This document shows, one piece after another, positions 1,858 through 30,661 of a stretch of 36,656 nucleotides of DNA (position 1 is its first letter; every line of letters begins with the position of its first letter). The translations under genes and the position numbers were made by a program. The DNA comes from a virus (lineage: Duplodnaviria > Caudoviricetes), in IMG/VR virus record IMGVR_UViG_3300048606_000040, positions 1 to 36,656 of that record; one strand, 5' to 3'. The notes under the pieces were generated by a model. It was not told where the DNA came from, made no database searches, and saw only the letters and a list, made by a program, of their open reading frames with translations.

Positions 1858-2225
1858 GCTCGCTCTTCCAGGTCGAGCTCGGTGGCGGCCAGAAGCCGCT
1901 CGAGGTGGAAGGCTGGGCTGCGCTCGATGGCATGTTCGAGGCCGCGGCGCAGCAGTCCGAGGCCCACTTCAAGGAACACCTCGAGCTGGCATCCACCTAT
2001 CGCGTGGCCATGGCAACGCCTGCCGGCCGGGCGCTCCTGCAGGACCTGATCCGCATGTTCTTCATGCAGCGCATCGTGCGTCCGGGGGATGATGAGTTCG
2101 CCGCCGGGATCCGCCAGGGCCAGCAGGACGTGGTGCGCAGGATTTTGTCGATGATAGAGTTCGCCAATTCCGGCGGCGGGCGACAGACCGGACCAGGCGC
2201 CAATCCTTCAGGAGCTCCCCCGTGA
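1854..2225 (+). CDS. Bbp19-like small protein downstream of portal
   Basis: GTGA overlap with portal; pattern TPAGRALLQDL...GQQDVVRRI seen in post-portal genes of BPP-1-like phages. Confidence 0.7.
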   Translation: MSSLFQVELGGGQKPLEVEGWAALDGMFEAAAQQSEAHFKEHLELASTYRVAMATPAGRALLQDLIRMFFMQRIVRPGDDEFAAGIRQGQQDVVRRILSMIEFANSGGGRQTGPGANPSGAPP

Positions 2226-2629
2226 AACAGTTTGCCCTTCGACTCACCCGCGGCGGCCGCAAAGAGAACATCCAGGAGCTGCGCCAGCTCGTCTTCGCCG
2301 GCCAGTCCGCCAACTTCACCGTCGGCAACAAGATCGTCGGCGGCACCTCGGGCGCGACCGGCATCCTGATCAGCCAGGCCGACGCCGGCGCGACCGGCAC
2401 GCTGATCCTCGACCAGGTGAAAGGAAACTTTCAGAACGGCGAGAACCTGACCGACGCTCCGGGCGCTGGCAACGGCACGGCCAACGGCACGCTCGCGATC
2501 GCGGCGGTGACCCCGACCGACCAGGCGATCCTGCTGGTCGACGCGGCGCTCTACACCCGCTCGGAGATGCTGGCGGCGCTGCGCGACATGATGCAGTACG
2601 TGCAGCTGATGCCGTTCCCGGATCGCTAA
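2222..2629 (+). CDS. Putative virion protein with a Gly/Thr-rich beta module
   Basis: AGGAG RBS, GTGA overlap, G/C-ending codons; FTVGNKIVGGTSGATG...GNFQNGENLT resembles modules in phage structural proteins. Confidence 0.7.
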   Translation: MKQFALRLTRGGRKENIQELRQLVFAGQSANFTVGNKIVGGTSGATGILISQADAGATGTLILDQVKGNFQNGENLTDAPGAGNGTANGTLAIAAVTPTDQAILLVDAALYTRSEMLAALRDMMQYVQLMPFPDR

Positions 2630-11713: not shown

Positions 11714-14700
11714 ATGGCTGACCCGGTTCTCGACGCCTACACCTCCCGCGCCCGCATGGAGGGCTTCACCGAGCACGACGCCCCGAGTGTCTGGTCGGAC
11801 ACGGTCGCGGCCGCCTTCTCCCTGACCCGGCGCGAGGAGATCTCGAGCAGCGCCTCCTCAGCCTGGGAGAAGAAGGTCGAGGAGCGCGCCAAGAAGATCG
11901 GCGAGTTGGGCGGCGATGCGACGCTCGCCAAGACTTACGCCATGGTCCCGCTGACCCAGGTGCAGTACTACCGCAAGTTCGAGAAGGAGAACGGCCGCGC
12001 GGCGCTGCTCGCGGATCCCATGTTCAAGCTCGATTTTGGCGACAGCAAGAACTTCCTCCAGTTCGGCAGCTACGAGCAGGCCCGCGACTTCGAGCAGCGC
12101 TACCCGGGCGAGGTGCTGGACGATGAGGCGCTGCTCGCCCAGATGCGCGCGGAGTTCGCGGTCGAGCGCCGGCGCGACCAGGACGTGATCGATCGAGGCG
12201 GCGGCGGCGCTGCGTTCCTGGGCCAGGCGGGCGGCACGCTCACCGATCCGCTGGTGCTGGCGACGGCGCCCTTCGGTCTCGCGACCACGCCCGCGAAGAC
12301 TGCACTCGGCACGATCGGCAAGACGGCGCTCACCGAAGGCGCGGTTGCCATGGCCACCGAGATCCCGGTGCAGGCGCAGATCGCAATCTTCAAGCGCGAC
12401 ATCGAGAGCCCGTGGACGTTCGCCGACTCCGCGGTCAACGTGCTCGCGGCGGGCGCCGGCGGCGCCGTGTTCGGCGGCACGATCGCGGGCGGTGCCATCG
12501 GATACAAGAAGGCGCTCGCGAAGTTCCGCGAGTTGAAGGCCGCGGGCAAGGCCACGCGCACCGCCGAGACCGACGCGGCCGAGTCCGCGCTCGAGGAGGC
12601 GATCGCGACCCAAGAGGCGAACCCGCTGCCGAAGGACGGCGGCCTCGAGGAGTTCACCGCCGACATCCATGGCGATGCGCTCGAGCGGGCGAGCGCCCAG
12701 GCTGAAGCCGGTGCGCCGGTCGACGTGGCGGAAGTGGTCACAGGGTTCGAGGCGCCGGATCCAGTGGGCTCGATCGTCACGCGCGCCGCGGATCCGGCGC
12801 AGCTCGTCGACGTCGATCCGCTGCAGCTGCACGTGGACGCGAAGACCTTCCAGTTCAAAGGAGGTGGCGATGCCGAAGGGGTTACGGGTGCACTCAGAGA
12901 CGTCGAACGTTTCGATCGCCGCCTGGCTGGCGTTGCGCTTATCTGGGAGCGCGCTGACGGTCGTCAGTTCATTGCCGATGGGCACCAGCGCGTGGGTCTG
13001 GCCCGCCGCGCGATCGCCGCCGGCCAGGATCCCGCCGAGGTGCGGCTCAACGGCTTCGTCCTTCGCGAGGCTGATGGAGTCACCGCGGTCGACGCGCGGC
13101 GCATGGCCGCGATCAAGAACATGGCGGAAGGGTCCGGATCCGCGCTCGATGCGGCGAAGATCCTAAGAGACGTCGGGCCCGCGGGTGAGGCGATGCTGCC
13201 GCCGCTCCCCCCTCGATCGGCGCTGGTACGCCAGGCCCGCGGGCTCGCCGCACTCGGTGACGAGGAGTTCCTCAAGGTCGTGAACGGCGTGGTCGATGAG
13301 CGCGCCGGCGCCCTGGTCGGGGCTGCCACCGAGGATCCGAAGCTGCAGAGCGCCATGATCGAGGTGCTGCGCCGGGCGAAGCCAGAGAACGAAGCCCAGG
13401 CGCGCAGCATCGTCGAGCAGGTGCGCACGCAGGGGATCGAGACCCGCACCACCACCGATCTTTTCGGCGAGCAGTCGTTCGCCGAGTCGCACTACCTCGA
13501 GCGCGCGCAGGTGCTCGACGCCGCGCTCAAGCTCGCCCGCGAGGACAAGCAGATCTTCGGCGGCCTGGTACGGAACGAGGACCGGATCGCCGGCGCCGGT
13601 TCCAACAGCCTCGACCGTGCTGCTAATCTCGCCCGCCAACAGGAGGCCGCCGATGCCGCGACGCAGATCACCATCCGGGCCAATGCCAAGGGCGCCCTCT
13701 CTGACGCCCTCAGCGATGCCGCCCGACGGGTCCGGGAAGGCGCCAAGCCAGGCACCGTCGCGAAGTCTTTTCTCGAGGCCGCTCGACGCGAGATCTTTCA
13801 AGGCGATCGAGGCCGGGGTGCGCCTGGCAAAGCTCGACCGCGCGGTAAATCAGCGGGCGCGTCTCGAGGAGTAGAGCCGCCGATCCGGCTGCAGTCGATC
13901 GAGCCAGTCGATCGCAAGCTCGTGAAGAAGACCTTCCGCGCTGGCCAGCACGGTCAGACGGTCGAGGATCTCTACAAGGTCGCCGAGCGTCACCAGAAGA
14001 AGCTGGTCGCCGCCATGCGCGAGCTCGCCGACGAGTTCGGTGACGACGTGAGCGTTGCCGATCCAGGCATCAAGGGCCGCGCCGGCACCGAGGAGAAGCT
14101 GCTCCGCAAGGGCTACCAGGACGCCGGCGAAGTGACCGACGTAATCCGCGCGGGCTTCATCACCCGGACCCCTGAGCAGGCCGCGGCGCTGATCGAGCGC
14201 ATGGCGCAGAAGTTCACGCTGCTCGATGACGGGATCAACGTGACCCCCATGGGCTACATCGACCACGTCGCCCTGGTGCGCTTCCCCGATGGCCGCGTCG
14301 CCGAGCTGCAGGCCTGGTCAGATGCCATGGCCCAGGCGAAGTTCAAGGAAGGGCACGTCCTGTACGAAGAAGCCCGCAAGCTCACCCCCGAGCAGCTGGC
14401 AACGCCTGAGGGCGCCGCGAAGCTCGAGGCGATCAACGAGGCGTCACGGGAGCTCTACGCGCGGGCGGTCGCCCAGGGGCCGCCCGAGTGGCGGCAGGTG
14501 GCCATGATGGCCTTCCCCGAAGACATGCGCGTCCGGGTTCAGGATGCGCTGGCGGGGAACGAGGCGGGCGCGGGAAGAGCGGGCAAGCCCGGGAACATCT
14601 CGAGCCAGGCGGCGCGCGACATCTCGAAGCCTGATTCCAGCACCTCGGCCGGGCTGCAACGCGACCAGGCGCCGGCCTCATCGGGTACGAAGAAGGCCTC

Positions 14701-15049
14701 GACGCCGCCCTCGAGCGAGGGCCGCGCCACCGCGGGACGCTCTTCCCAGTTGAAGAATCTCTCAGCCATTGATAGTCCTCCGAGGAGCATTATACGCGCG
14801 GTCGACGACCCCAAGAGTGCGCACCCGACAAAATCGCGCACCGGCACCGTCGAGGATGCCGACTACGACGCGGTTATGTCGCAATACCAGGATGCACTGG
14901 AAGATCGCGGCCAGCTGCTCACCTTGACCCAGGAGATCGACGGCGTGGTTACTGAGCGCCCGGTCTCGGGTGTCATCGACGAACTGGACACCGCCGAGGA
15001 GACCCTCGAACGGGTCCGGCTCTGCTCGCTGCCGCCGCGCGCGGCCTGA
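11714..15049 (+). CDS. Polyvalent internal virion protein: hydrophobic Gly-rich region, ParB/Srx-like domain, RelA/SpoT-like nucleotidyltransferase domain
   Basis: ParB-like FIADGHQR (about 12800-13150). RelA/SpoT-like IK..R...EK, TDVIRA, GYIDH, ELQ, GHVLYE (about 14050-14380). Lies within the ejection-protein cluster. Confidence 0.8.
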   Translation: MADPVLDAYTSRARMEGFTEHDAPSVWSDTVAAAFSLTRREEISSSASSAWEKKVEERAKKIGELGGDATLAKTYAMVPLTQVQYYRKFEKENGRAALLADPMFKLDFGDSKNFLQFGSYEQARDFEQRYPGEVLDDEALLAQMRAEFAVERRRDQDVIDRGGGGAAFLGQAGGTLTDPLVLATAPFGLATTPAKTALGTIGKTALTEGAVAMATEIPVQAQIAIFKRDIESPWTFADSAVNVLAAGAGGAVFGGTIAGGAIGYKKALAKFRELKAAGKATRTAETDAAESALEEAIATQEANPLPKDGGLEEFTADIHGDALERASAQAEAGAPVDVAEVVTGFEAPDPVGSIVTRAADPAQLVDVDPLQLHVDAKTFQFKGGGDAEGVTGALRDVERFDRRLAGVALIWERADGRQFIADGHQRVGLARRAIAAGQDPAEVRLNGFVLREADGVTAVDARRMAAIKNMAEGSGSALDAAKILRDVGPAGEAMLPPLPPRSALVRQARGLAALGDEEFLKVVNGVVDERAGALVGAATEDPKLQSAMIEVLRRAKPENEAQARSIVEQVRTQGIETRTTTDLFGEQSFAESHYLERAQVLDAALKLAREDKQIFGGLVRNEDRIAGAGSNSLDRAANLARQQEAADAATQITIRANAKGALSDALSDAARRVREGAKPGTVAKSFLEAARREIFQGDRGRGAPGKARPRGKSAGASRGVEPPIRLQSIEPVDRKLVKKTFRAGQHGQTVEDLYKVAERHQKKLVAAMRELADEFGDDVSVADPGIKGRAGTEEKLLRKGYQDAGEVTDVIRAGFITRTPEQAAALIERMAQKFTLLDDGINVTPMGYIDHVALVRFPDGRVAELQAWSDAMAQAKFKEGHVLYEEARKLTPEQLATPEGAAKLEAINEASRELYARAVAQGPPEWRQVAMMAFPEDMRVRVQDALAGNEAGAGRAGKPGNISSQAARDISKPDSSTSAGLQRDQAPASSGTKKASTPPSSEGRATAGRSSQLKNLSAIDSPPRSIIRAVDDPKSAHPTKSRTGTVEDADYDAVMSQYQDALEDRGQLLTLTQEIDGVVTERPVSGVIDELDTAEETLERVRLCSLPPRAA
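12870..13166 (+). CDS. Candidate nested +1-frame gene (98 aa) with a hydrophobic segment, inside the polyvalent gene
   Basis: AAGGAGGT at 12858-12865, ATG 12870; host frame uses rare codons here; the stop is formed by rare CTA AGA codons. Confidence 0.5.
   Translation: MPKGLRVHSETSNVSIAAWLALRLSGSALTVVSSLPMGTSAWVWPAARSPPARIPPRCGSTASSFARLMESPRSTRGAWPRSRTWRKGPDPRSMRRRS
13653..13874 (+). CDS. Candidate nested +1-frame gene (73 aa) inside the polyvalent gene
   Basis: AGGAGG at 13641-13646, ATG 13653; the last 25 codons have genome-typical usage while the host frame does not. Confidence 0.5.
   Translation: MPRRRSPSGPMPRAPSLTPSAMPPDGSGKAPSQAPSRSLFSRPLDARSFKAIEAGVRLAKLDRAVNQRARLEE
14539..14769 (-). 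CDS. Nested antisense gene (76 aa), candidate immunity/antitoxin for the RelA/SpoT-like domain
   Basis: Minus strand TATAAT-GCTCCTC-GGAGGA-6 nt-ATG; product MAERFFNWEERPAV...WLEMFP looks globular while the host frame is an S/A/T/P-rich shadow. Confidence 0.75.
   Translation of the reverse strand: MAERFFNWEERPAVARPSLEGGVEAFFVPDEAGAWSRCSPAEVLESGFEMSRAAWLEMFPGLPALPAPASFPASAS
14776..14800 (-). promoter_or_regulatory. Internal antisense promoter (-10 TATAAT) and RBS
   Basis: TATAAT at 14794-14789, GGAGGA at 14781-14776; shares GCGTATAAnnCTCCT with the early promoter near 28660; no clear -35. Confidence 0.65.
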
Positions 15050-24049: not shown

Positions 24050-24315
24050 GAGTGCCCCGCCCGCTCGGCCTCGGGCGCCGCCTCCTCGCCACCCATCACC
24101 GGGCGGATCCCGGTCACCGCCTCGATGAAGTCGGCGGTCACGTCCTTCGCGAGCTGCATGAACTGATGGCGGCGCGGCTCGTTCTCGTGCACCAGGCGCA
24201 TGTCGATGCGCGCGAGCTCCATCGGCGGCTCGCCCGGCATCGCGTAGTAGGCGACCCACCAGGCGCCCTCGTGGCGCATCGCTAACTTCCCGACCTGCAG
24301 GAGCGGGCGGTTCAC
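24046..24315 (-). CDS. Hypothetical protein (89 aa)
   Basis: GTG 24315 overlaps the ParB stop; typical codons. Confidence 0.7.
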   Translation of the reverse strand: MNRPLLQVGKLAMRHEGAWWVAYYAMPGEPPMELARIDMRLVHENEPRRHQFMQLAKDVTADFIEAVTGIRPVMGGEEAAPEAERAGHS

Positions 24316-25388
24316 TTGCGCACCGCCTTGGCCTTCTTCTTCGGTTTCGCCTTGGCGTCGTCCTTGTGGCTGGCGAGCAGCGCCACCTCGCCTGTCTTCA
24401 GCTGCACCAGGACCGGCTGGTAATCCTTGTCGAGCAGCTGCTTGACGCTCTTGCCCTGGTGGCTGGGCTGGTGATCGAGCCGCACGTAGCTGTCGGGGAC
24501 TTCGGCCTGGTTGCGCAGGATCTTCTGCCCACGATCCTTCGCCTCGGAAAGCATGCGCTCCCCGTGGGCCTTCTTCTTCGCGTTGAAGCAGACCAGGTCC
24601 AGGCAATGGCCCAGACCCTTCACCTGCTCGAAGAGGGCGCCCTGGGCGCCGCTGCGCTTGGGGCAGCCATGGCAGGCCCCGGCCTTGGGCACCAGGCCCG
24701 CCTCGGCGATCGGGAACGGCGCGCCCTTGAGCTCGGAGAGGAAGTGCTGCTCGGCGTGATCGCGCACGTCGGCGGCGGACATCGGGCCTTGCCAGTGATC
24801 GAGGTGATCGAGCACCTCCTCGAGGAGTTCGTCCTGGTGCTCATGGATCGGGAGCTTGGCGAGCTCGAGCGCCACGGTGAAGCCGAGCTTCCCGTCATAG
24901 AACGCCCGGCGCACCGCCTTCGACAGCGTCTTCAGGCGCAACCGGCGCAGCACGTAGGTCGGCGAGCGGCCGAACTTGGCGGCGATCTGCTCGGCGTTCA
25001 TACCGTGGCTGACCAGCGCCTCATAGCCTTCCGCCTCGGCGAGCTCGTGTAGCTCCTCGCGATCGAGGTTCTCGGTCAGCTGTACCTCGATCACTTGCTG
25101 ATCGTTCAGCTCGCGCACGCTGCAGGGCACCTCCGGCCACTCGGCCAGGCCCGCCGCCATGAAGCGCCGCTCACCGGCGACGATCTCGAACTGGGTGGCG
25201 GGGTTGCCCTTCTTGGCGGCCGGGCGCACCAGGATCGGGTTGACCATGCCGTTCGCATCGAGCGACTCGGCGAGCTCCTTGATCCGCGCCTTGTTGAAAT
25301 GGGCGCGGCGCTCGACCTGGCTCTCGGTCTCCGACAGCACCAGCAGCTTGCGCGGAATCAGCCGCGTCTCGAGCGCCGCGCTGCTCAT
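24312..25388 (-). CDS. parB: ParB/RepB/Spo0J-family protein
   Basis: NPILVRP, FEIVAGERRF, ENLDREEL, an HTH and a Cys-rich CHGCPKRS..CLD..CF module. Confidence 0.9.
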   Translation of the reverse strand: MSSAALETRLIPRKLLVLSETESQVERRAHFNKARIKELAESLDANGMVNPILVRPAAKKGNPATQFEIVAGERRFMAAGLAEWPEVPCSVRELNDQQVIEVQLTENLDREELHELAEAEGYEALVSHGMNAEQIAAKFGRSPTYVLRRLRLKTLSKAVRRAFYDGKLGFTVALELAKLPIHEHQDELLEEVLDHLDHWQGPMSAADVRDHAEQHFLSELKGAPFPIAEAGLVPKAGACHGCPKRSGAQGALFEQVKGLGHCLDLVCFNAKKKAHGERMLSEAKDRGQKILRNQAEVPDSYVRLDHQPSHQGKSVKQLLDKDYQPVLVQLKTGEVALLASHKDDAKAKPKKKAKAVRK

Positions 25389-29485: not shown

Positions 29486-30661
29486 ATGAACGACCGAATC
29501 CACTGGGCTTTTTCGCAGCCCGAGCTCAACAGCGGCGAGAAGCTGATCCTGGTGTGGCTCGCCTGGCGCGCGGGATCCGGCGCCGCCATCCTCGAGCGCG
29601 ATCTGCTCGCCCAGGCGAGCGACTACGAGCCGCGCAGCCTGCAGCGGATCCTGAAGACCCTGCGCGATCGTGGCCTGCTGCACGAGGCGGGCGACTGGTA
29701 TGCGGTGGGGCAGACCCCAGGGGGTGAGGCGCCGGCCTTCCCGCCGGCGGATATGCAGCCCCTGGGTGCAGATATGCGCGAGTCCCTGGCGCGCGAGCTG
29801 CCGCTCATGACCGACCAGGAGCTCGGGCGGATCGAGGACGCACTCGCCAAAGCCATCACCGAGGCGGGCGATGGGCTGATCACCCGCTTCAACGACGTGA
29901 GCCTTCGCCTGCTGCAGGGGATCGAGAAGATCGCCCAGGCGGCTCGTGTCTGGGAGGAGAGCGTCGCCGATGCCGTCGCGCCAGCGCCCGATCCGGTGCG
30001 CGAGTCCACCCACTTCAAGGCCTTCATGCTGGGCGGTGTGCTCACCGAGCCCGAGGCCTACGAGCTCGCGAGGAAGCGCCTGGAAGCCGAAGGGGTGCTG
30101 GCTGGCCCAGGACCCTCGGCCGCCGCCGTGCTGCCCGTGGCGGTCCAGACGCTCGTGCCCAAGGGGCGCCAGCCACTGCGCGACACCCGCCAGTACCTGG
30201 ACTCCCCGCTCGGACGCTTCGAGCGCGTGCGCGACATCCTGGACCCGGCCGGCACTGAGCCCTGGGCGGATGCGATGACCGTCTGGTCGAAGCTCGAGGC
30301 TTCGGAGAACAAGCACTCGGTGGAGGGTGAGAGCACGGGCTTCGAGCTCCTGTACCCGGCGATCGTCACCGCCGCCCGGCGCAGCGCCGGCTTGATGTCC
30401 GTCGCGCAGTTCCTGGACGAGAAGGCCATTGCCGCCAACCGCGCACCGTGGGACCAGGCGCCCGCGGTCGCGAACAACGACGCGCAGCTGCAGGTCGAGC
30501 TCGCGAACATGCTGGACGAGCTCGAGCGCGCGAGCCACCCGATGGCGATCGCGCCCGGGCGCACGGTCGAGGGCTCGCTCACCGAGTCGTTGGCGTCGTA
30601 TCACTTGCGCGTGAAGCGCGTTCACCAGCAGCTGAAGAAGCTGCAAGAAATGGGGGTTTGA
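29486..30661 (+). CDS. Putative replication protein with N-terminal wHTH
   Basis: WAFSQ...EKLILVWLA...LA......RSLQRILKTL..RGLL resembles phage initiator N-termini; adjacent to the origin. Confidence 0.65.
   Translation: MNDRIHWAFSQPELNSGEKLILVWLAWRAGSGAAILERDLLAQASDYEPRSLQRILKTLRDRGLLHEAGDWYAVGQTPGGEAPAFPPADMQPLGADMRESLARELPLMTDQELGRIEDALAKAITEAGDGLITRFNDVSLRLLQGIEKIAQAARVWEESVADAVAPAPDPVRESTHFKAFMLGGVLTEPEAYELARKRLEAEGVLAGPGPSAAAVLPVAVQTLVPKGRQPLRDTRQYLDSPLGRFERVRDILDPAGTEPWADAMTVWSKLEASENKHSVEGESTGFELLYPAIVTAARRSAGLMSVAQFLDEKAIAANRAPWDQAPAVANNDAQLQVELANMLDELERASHPMAIAPGRTVEGSLTESLASYHLRVKRVHQQLKKLQEMGV

Follow-up and report, generated by a model that had tools for sequence, protein, structure and literature searches.

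Does the stretch of tailed-phage DNA analysed here (36,656 nucleotides, referred to below as the window) hold, on the strand opposite a large virion protein gene, a second gene whose product protects against a toxin domain encoded by the first? Our analysis makes it very probable that a 76-residue antisense open reading frame (ORF) at this locus is a conserved gene, belonging to a family under purifying selection, and that it encodes a likely immunity protein that binds and blocks a predicted (p)ppApp-synthetase toxin domain inside a likely injected virion protein. The features concerned are as follows.

11714..15049, plus strand: host gene, likely an ejection or internal virion protein with a variable toxin slot (1111 aa)
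12776..13813, plus strand: conserved core, aa 355-700 (phrog_10691, E 3e-54; common to all 80 fetched homologues)
13928..14533, plus strand: RelA/SpoT-like domain with a small alarmone synthetase fold, aa 739-940 (from profile and fold)
14769..14539, minus strand: nested antisense gene, predicted immunity protein (76 aa; folded core aa 1-61, low-confidence tail)
14781-14776, minus strand: Shine-Dalgarno (SD)-like GGAGGA, 6 nt from its end to ATG 14769
14794-14789, minus strand: sigma-70-type -10 hexamer TATAAT, 19 nt before the ATG, without a good -35 here
14831..15049, plus strand: conserved C-terminal segment ending ...LERVRLC..., alike whether or not the homologue carries a toxin insert

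The host gene is preceded by an internal virion protein gene (phrog_418) and a 728-aa ORF, and is followed by a virion structural protein gene (phrog_684); judging by these neighbours, its product is likely an ejection or internal virion protein that is packaged in the virion and injected. PHROG matches on the 1111-aa protein span aa 355-693 only, in a core that we take to be ParB-like from its motif FIADGHQR. No Pfam family matches the host protein at E ≤ 0.01 (including ParB-like for the core, RelA/SpoT and MuF), and the carrier is not a MuF protein, unlike the MuF fusions mentioned in an earlier, sequence-only reading of this DNA. After 10 truncated loci had been set aside, the slot was found to be empty in 16 of the 70 complete genes, zeta-like in 32, Rel-type in 19 and otherwise occupied in three; homologue P0007 additionally has ART-PolyVal. 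The host family shows the several conflict domains and the variable architecture that large polyvalent phage proteins have. Virion assembly likely depends on the C-terminal segment. Among the window ORFs tested, none was identified as an integrase or repressor.

The domain next to the antisense ORF had been read as RelA/SpoT-like, and this is borne out by its alarmone-synthetase fold, its intact motifs and its profile match. The model of the domain is confident (pLDDT 94.9), and the best 10 matches in a fold comparison are all small alarmone synthetases or Tas1 (Z 14.1-15.3, rmsd 2.7-3.6, 164-169 residues aligned; Tas1 itself at Z 14.1, rmsd 3.5, 165 aligned); the best PDB sequence match of the domain profile is likewise Tas1 (6ox6_A, E 8.7e-21). 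Residues K787, K795, D809, R812, D850, E864, Q866 and Y915, numbered according to what we take to be the synthesis motifs, are retained, and the synthesis-motif residues (K, DxxR, YxD, ExQ, GH) are invariant in 27 of 27 aligned domains, the window's included, and align with those of Tas1. Pfam did not detect the domain in the host protein, a search of GenBank phages gave no match to it, and 785 cluster representatives match it at E ≤ 0.001. About 170 aa of the host protein lie after it.

The antisense frame behind this domain runs on the minus strand from ATG 14769 to TGA 14541-14539, and its product reads MAERFFNWEERPAV...PASAS. The ORF, GGAGGA and TATAAT all lie within the 1111-aa ORF, and the sequence-only reading had placed each of them, and the start codon, correctly. 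TATAAT occurs once in the whole genome (both strands, 36,656 nt), at 14794-14789. The window's best -35, CTCTTG, is poor (1/6 match), the TATAAT site is not among the promoters listed by a consensus scan of the window, and a scan found no terminator-like site behind the ORF. When the host gene was resampled synonymously, the minus-strand frame stayed open in 796 of 2000 resamplings, and an open antisense frame alone is weak evidence for a gene; the set TATAAT-GGAGG-ATG on the minus strand appeared in 0 of 2000. Nested small genes begin with a conserved SD or in a leaderless-like manner, an SD of at least 4 nt accompanying 58 of 72 distinct nested starts. The plus-frame shadow of start, SD and -10 (SQLKN..AID.PPRSI) is invariant in 8/8 close host homologues. 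A longer GTG-started form of 102 aa (from 14847) was ruled out, the SD, the -10 and the homologue starts all favouring ATG 14769. The small gene had been supposed to escape gene callers, and it is indeed absent from the protein collection in which the host protein is present.

We evaluated whether such an ORF accompanies Rel domains at other loci. Behind internal family-A4 domains in IMG/VR, a profile-matched antisense ORF was found in 74 of 75 cases (loci not dereplicated, and in part also the source of the profiles). In a second Rel clade, an SD-led antisense ORF follows 28 of 28 internal domains (24 of them also profile-matched), in a search confined to the one antisense phase. A scan that used signals only was positive for 16 of 19 Rel-type inserts (13/15 plus 3/4), as against 1 of 32 zeta inserts (length-matched and in the same slot), 0 of 16 insert-free genes and 0 of 3 other inserts, indicating that the ORF and its signals are tied to RelA/SpoT-like domains, as the sequence-only reading had anticipated. 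All 124 of 124 nested pairs share one phase, in which third codon positions coincide. The pair of toxin and nested ORF was also found in different host-gene backbones, in line with the earlier idea of a mobile in-frame cassette of ejection genes.

Selection was tested by comparing transversion rates between site classes in 33 disjoint pairs; the window's copy is in none of these pairs, and the result therefore holds for the family and not for the window's allele. Sites at which both frames are four-fold degenerate changed at a rate of 0.170 (88/519), sites altering the antisense frame only at 0.054 (22/411; p=2e-8) and sites altering the host frame only at 0.112 (37/331; p=0.02), and a control shadow frame over the Rel domain gave no signal (0.174 versus 0.168, p=0.79). 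Purifying selection is strong on the antisense frame and weaker on the host frame, so that the selection proposed for the minus frame is present at family level. The description of the small gene as overprinted on the carrier probably has the direction wrong: free-standing versions of the small gene are found and its frame is under the stronger constraint, so that the linker is likely a read-through of the small gene. For the same reasons, the free-standing homologues and the tighter minus-frame constraint, we rejected an origin of the small gene by de novo overprinting on the linker.

Where the toxin domain is terminal, the same small protein is usually encoded behind it by an ordinary same-strand gene, often in arrays, as at L101 (3 copies), L181, L153 (4), L134 (2) and L099; the metagenome locus L140 is arranged like L101, and for one terminal domain, at L203, a partner gene was not found. 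At L264 the toxin and small genes are convergent and barely overlap. Bacterial DNA also carries orphan copies with defence-like genes nearby, and one orphan (L124) is followed by an HD_4 hydrolase gene. The small protein also exists without the toxin, since 32 of 50 small-gene loci in the metagenome entry have no Rel domain alongside (some contigs are short). An immunity role is suggested by the same-strand copies that stand free behind terminal toxin domains. Orphans are interspersed with nested copies in the family tree, a quick tree of 77 columns that leaves 44 of 96 forks open and gives no evolutionary direction.

The model of the 76-aa protein is a confident fold (pLDDT 83.5). Searches of Pfam and PHROG families matched none, a PDB sequence search returned nothing more useful than designed SAKe repeats (with no sequence match to Tis1 or another solved immunity protein), an Atlas search gave nothing above 0.76, and a locus search of IMG/VR with the single sequence gave no locus. 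The fold search had no match at Z ≥ 5, a result that does not imply a new fold; Tis1 appears in it at Z 3.2 (rmsd 3.5, 58 aligned), level with unrelated folds and not above background, and in Foldseek as a weak match (E 2.5, TMq 0.40). The three antisense families compared with each other give hhalign probabilities of 26, 4 and 4%, too low to establish homology. The complex with the toxin domain, whose modelling had been suggested, was predicted with a median score of 0.46 against 0.01 for the best control, on a benchmark in which 116 of 157 solved pairs and 2 of 215 mismatched pairs attained the mark; of these, only 18 solved pairs but both mismatches did so with a score ≤ 0.60. The runs agree in at least 92% of contacts, with a partner pLDDT of at least 83. 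This prediction weakly supports binding between toxin and partner, and its score may partly reflect the solved Tas1-Tis1 pair.

Could the ORF have arisen by chance, as the shadow of a conserved linker of low complexity in an antisense phase that opens easily? The residues of the two frames are coupled, and the phase opens readily under resampling; against this stand the genome-unique hexamer, a signal set that no resampling reproduced, a selection signal with a null control and the confident small-protein fold, and the homologues that lack an overlapping host gene contradict it, which leaves chance with hardly any probability. Alternatively, the antisense unit might silence leaky toxin mRNA, acting chiefly through its RNA or through interference with transcription, with the peptide secondary: the promoter points towards the toxin domain and, with no terminator-like site found behind the ORF, transcription could continue into the toxin sequence. 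We consider this very improbable given selection at the amino-acid level on the minus frame, conserved SD or leaderless-like starts, and free-standing same-strand copies that cannot act as cis-antisense RNA; an RNA effect could still be an add-on to a protein antidote.

A further alternative accepts the small protein as a real partner and has it act as chaperone, activator or timing regulator, the alarmone synthetase being non-lethal and serving to tune the host's physiology. Binding predictions and co-occurrence cannot separate an inhibitor from an activator, and PMC5512222 suggests that the RelA/SpoT domains of polyvalent proteins may modify the host instead of killing it. The tandem arrays at terminal domains, the bacterial orphans near defence-like genes and the HD-hydrolase neighbour nevertheless fit immunity, and the closest solved sequence relative of the domain is the toxin Tas1; we regard a regulatory role as unlikely.

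If the small protein is an immunity protein, the late operon would make the carrier, which would be packaged and injected with the DNA, and the injected domain would drain ATP or stall the new host, as Tas1 and Apk2 toxins do. We propose that the toxin is internal, with no downstream same-strand immunity gene possible, because the carrier needs its conserved C-terminus, and that the immunity gene therefore faces the toxin from the opposite strand. The carrier frame would read through the immunity gene as a Ser/Ala-rich linker, with third codon positions coinciding, and a sigma-70 promoter of its own would let the gene provide antidote without relying on the late operon, thereby protecting the producing cell or a carrier state and perhaps excluding kin phages. 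Toxin and nested antidote would swap as one in-frame cassette, and bacteria would capture the antidote as orphan genes. We lean slightly towards a more general view, in which natural gene entanglement is the routine way for phages to house a lethal enzyme in an injected protein that is itself essential: a swappable in-frame cassette of toxin domain and fully nested, self-promoted antisense immunity gene would have evolved from ordinary toxin-immunity pairs via a convergent intermediate, bacteria would capture the hidden immunity genes as orphans and fused arrays (and so defend themselves against toxins injected from virions, in a way missed by annotation), and other internal toxin domains of polyvalent proteins may likewise have hidden antidotes behind them.

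What toxins do when fused to virion proteins of phages is treated as an open question in the Discussion of PMC10083569. Toxin-immunity surveys, according to the Methods of PMC3482391, counted same-strand neighbours only, and internal toxin domains looked partnerless partly for this reason. Such nesting is not described in the titles, abstracts and text passages covered by our literature search (most subscription papers lie outside it); 'antisense' and 'opposite strand' occur 0 times in the main text of PMC5512222, and the passages of it covered by the search propose no nested immunity genes. The locus offers a candidate antidote for a large toxin family (the 785 cluster representatives), which would make these toxins clonable and testable, and a natural, widespread example of an antisense gene that is wholly nested and under selection, its relatives retaining same-strand and convergent arrangements. 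It also leads us to predict that the orphan copies shield bacteria from toxins injected by phages, and it suggests a search rule: where a giant virion protein has a low-complexity linker next to an enzyme domain, a gene may be hidden there.

Among known systems, toxSAS type II toxin-antitoxin systems are stand-alone bicistronic same-strand operons, whereas here the toxin is built into a virion gene as one domain, with its partner nested antisense. Immunity genes of pore-forming colicins have their own promoter and are transcribed against the colicin operon, and they lie beside the toxin frame and are not known to lie inside it; the present gene resembles them in its opposite strand and own promoter motif, but lies inside the frame of the toxin gene. 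Engineered toxin gene entanglement, a laboratory design, likewise places two genes in one DNA stretch, which here is natural. Tas1-Tis1 (Apk1, Pseudomonas aeruginosa, PDB 6ox6) supplies the best PDB sequence match of the domain, and Tis1, similar in size to the 76-aa protein, appears weakly in fold searches; unlike the domain here, Tas1 is a type VI secretion effector fused to PAAR, and the tis1 gene lies next to it. Polyvalent proteins, as described by Iyer et al. 2017 (PMC5512222), are large multi-domain phage proteins with RelA/SpoT, ddrB-ParB, ART-PolyVal and LPD38, and relatives of the host protein carry these same Pfam families. A close likeness, going by PMC12226406 and PMC10083569, is to Apk2-IapK(-Aph1), the MuF-fused (p)ppApp synthetase toxins of temperate phages: both have a virion-associated phage carrier (here judged from gene neighbours), a Tas1-like synthetase domain and a small non-enzymatic partner, the relatives with a terminal toxin (L101, L181, L153, L134) have downstream same-strand partner genes, and the orphan L124 precedes an HD hydrolase as iapK precedes aph1 (PMC12226406). 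Unlike Apk2, the host protein is without a MuF match and its toxin is internal, not C-terminal, and unlike IapK, the partner is encoded antisense, wholly within the carrier coding sequence, with a promoter motif of its own.

The window is a complete phage record (36,656 nt) bearing terminal repeats, with a podovirus-like structural module. The sequence-only reading had claimed a hidden gene with its own signals on the minus strand of a virion protein gene, and each element that it named is present:

11714-15049, plus strand: host ORF, 1111 aa, with internal virion and structural genes as neighbours
14794-14789, minus strand: TATAAT, within the host gene
14781-14776, minus strand: GGAGGA, within the host gene
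14769 (ATG) to 14539, minus strand: small ORF, 76-codon frame

This TATAAT is the sole copy genome-wide; the -35 is poor, and a consensus promoter scan of the window did not list the site. When the host gene was resampled synonymously 2000 times, the small frame stayed open in 796 cases, whereas the minus-strand signal set appeared in none; the evidence thus comes from the signals, and an open frame by itself is uninformative. The plus-frame shadow of the start, Shine-Dalgarno (SD) sequence and -10 is invariant in 8/8 close host proteins. Elsewhere the window carries a ParB-family gene (24312-25388, minus strand) and an HTH_36 replication-initiator-like gene (29486-30661, plus strand), and no integrase was identified among the ORFs tested; a plasmid-like carrier state of the phage is therefore possible.

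Host residues 739-940 are not matched by Pfam RelA_SpoT, which weakly matches 2 of 27 relatives. A 27-sequence domain profile matches Tas1 (E 8.7e-21) and SaSAS (7.6e-6), and the predicted domain model (pLDDT 94.9) gives Z 14-15 against small alarmone synthetases. K787, K795, D809, R812, D850, E864, Q866 and Y915 are invariant across the domain alignment and retained in the window. The domain is widespread: 785 cluster representatives match it at E<=0.001, and many are long proteins. Its presumed activity, product and toxicity are those suggested by Tas1 and Apk2, the toxins of known synthetase-immunity pairs.

Among the best 80 of 238 IMG/VR loci for the host gene, a variable slot sits between a conserved core and a conserved C-terminus. 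A signal-only scan of these loci (10 truncated loci excluded, redundant loci all counted, and cut-offs chosen after the loci had been inspected) detected the antisense ORF in 13/15 Rel inserts of the window's family (A4) and 3/4 other Rel-like inserts, versus 1/32 zeta-toxin-like inserts of similar length, 0/16 shorter, insert-free tails and 0/3 others; the Rel loci that the scan missed (L008, L075 and L029) nonetheless carry the ORF. The antisense ORF and its signals, which had been tied to the Rel domain, do track it in this sample. Zeta-toxin-like kinases occupy the slot in 32/70 complete homologues from the same best 80 (L005, L031, L043 and 29 more; Pfam confirms three), and with that single exception the scan finds no comparable antisense gene in zeta-filled slots. 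At L018 an SD-led antisense ORF (2166-2375, minus strand) lies N-terminal of the domain of a third Rel-like insert, and in the host-protein homologue P0007 an ART-PolyVal domain (aa 968-1117) separates the Rel domain from the antisense shadow, and the shadow is retained.

The toxin domain, used as query, gave 77 loci, with the domain internal in 75 and terminal in two. An antisense ORF directly behind the internal domain matched the small-protein profiles, built partly from those same loci, in 74/75; in the remaining case (L168) the antisense ORF is led by an SD and a -10. The terminal domain of L181 is followed by the small gene in the same orientation, and for the terminal Rel domain of L203 (3362-4723) a partner gene was looked for and not found. 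A second Rel clade (29 loci, 28 with the domain internal) has an SD-led antisense ORF in 28/28 internal cases by a scan confined to the phase that nested pairs use, 24 of them profile-matched; in its one terminal case (L264) a homologous gene converges on the toxin gene, tail to tail and again in that phase. Searching with the small protein returned 21 IMG/VR loci, five of which belonged to the query alignment (19 nested, two same-strand behind a terminal domain), 50 metagenome loci (15 nested, three same-strand, 32 without an adjoining Rel domain) and six genome loci, one paired with a Rel match on a short contig.

All nested pairs (124/124) share one phase, with the third codon positions of both frames in register, so that the two frames are separable in a selection test. 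Over 33 disjoint pairs (from 83 unique loci, 77 representatives), transversions occurred at 88/519 sites four-fold degenerate in both frames, at 22/411 where they alter the antisense protein only (p=2e-8) and at 37/331 where they alter the host only (p=0.02). The same shadow phase over the Rel domain, our control, had no depletion (125/720 vs 167/992, p=0.79), and the host frame there is depleted (40/1146). Constraint thus comes mainly from the antisense protein, and the host linker is also weakly constrained; because the window's copy is in none of the 33 pairs, this purifying selection on the minus frame is established at the family level. Among 72 distinct nested starts, 37 have an SD and a -10, 21 an SD only, 10 a leaderless-type -10 and three neither signal, and one is cut off; a -35 of at least 4/6 accompanies 20 of the 47 having a -10. 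SD-less nested genes at L008, L088, L095, L097, L098 and L145 have a -10 about 5-8 nt upstream of the ATG and are leaderless-like. We are all but certain that the 76-aa ORF is a real gene.

The small protein is modelled with confidence (pLDDT 83.5) as two helices and a small beta-sheet, and has no family and no clear fold match (Tis1, the immunity partner of Tas1, at Z 3.2 only); its genomic context says more. Where the toxin domain is terminal, the small gene lies behind it in same-strand arrays of 1-4 copies, a layout known for MuF toxins (PMC10083569, PMC12226406). Orphan copies occur in cellular DNA. In a SUP05 genome the flanking genes are TrkH and a helicase; others adjoin OLD-like, CAP12-TIR or integrase genes, and at L124 an HD_4 hydrolase gene follows, an order like iapK-aph1. 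The orphans L232 (4221-5219), L112 (1896-2210), L131 and L135, some tandem-fused, share a chromosomal site adjoining a helicase and a polyprenyl synthetase gene, and that of L112 is near-identical to a nested phage copy. At the DNA level, the nearest relatives of the window's small protein (L104, 4001-4522; L105, 3056-3523; 56-61% identity) are free-standing, C-terminally extended and near integrase or OLD-like genes. Besides the nested copy, a separate minus-strand gene lies behind the host gene in L171 (5805-7346) and L172-L174; its product begins with a hydrophobic segment and contains the small domain 2-4 times. One ORF of L121 (1114-1593), a short contig with no toxin seen, fuses a family-A to a family-C-like domain, as in a multi-immunity protein.

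Gene callers had been expected to miss the small gene, and the window's own small protein was indeed not found in a protein collection that includes the host protein; of 32 called homologues, 22 are on contigs <2 kb and 0/32 on a contig >9,022 nt. Complex modelling, proposed earlier, scored the small protein with the Rel domain at 0.46 (three runs 0.44-0.61; best control 0.01), with contact agreement of at least 92% and partner pLDDT of at least 83. The benchmark mark was reached by 116/157 solved and 2/215 mismatched pairs, but among the pairs reaching it just 18 solved ones scored <=0.60, as did the two mismatches, and a similar complex was already solved, so the prediction lends weak support to binding. 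That the small protein is an immunity protein is quite probable.

We envisage that the carrier would be made late, packaged and injected, whereupon its synthetase domain would poison or stall the new host. Because the C-terminus, judging from its conservation, must stay, the toxin would be internal, with the immunity gene opposite it on the other strand under its own promoter, and the carrier frame would pass through that gene as a linker. All three arrangements, nested, same-strand and convergent, are observed, and the resolution of the family tree is insufficient to order them. The pair recurs in several backbones that are unrelated to one another, ddrB-ParB and LPD38 proteins among them, which fits the mobile cassette proposed earlier and is consistent with exchange of toxin and small gene together.

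Polyvalent proteins with RelA/SpoT domains are already published (PMC5512222), in a main text where 'antisense' and 'opposite strand' are both absent, and the classic polymorphic-toxin survey took only same-strand genes as operons (PMC3482391). We found no account of this nesting in the literature searched; subscription papers and supplements, notably those of Iyer 2017, could bear on the point. The window's pair would work like Apk2-IapK and Tas1-Tis1, but its carrier differs from Apk2 in having no MuF match, an internal toxin and an antisense partner; we regard the arrangement as a new architecture within a known kind of toxin-immunity system.
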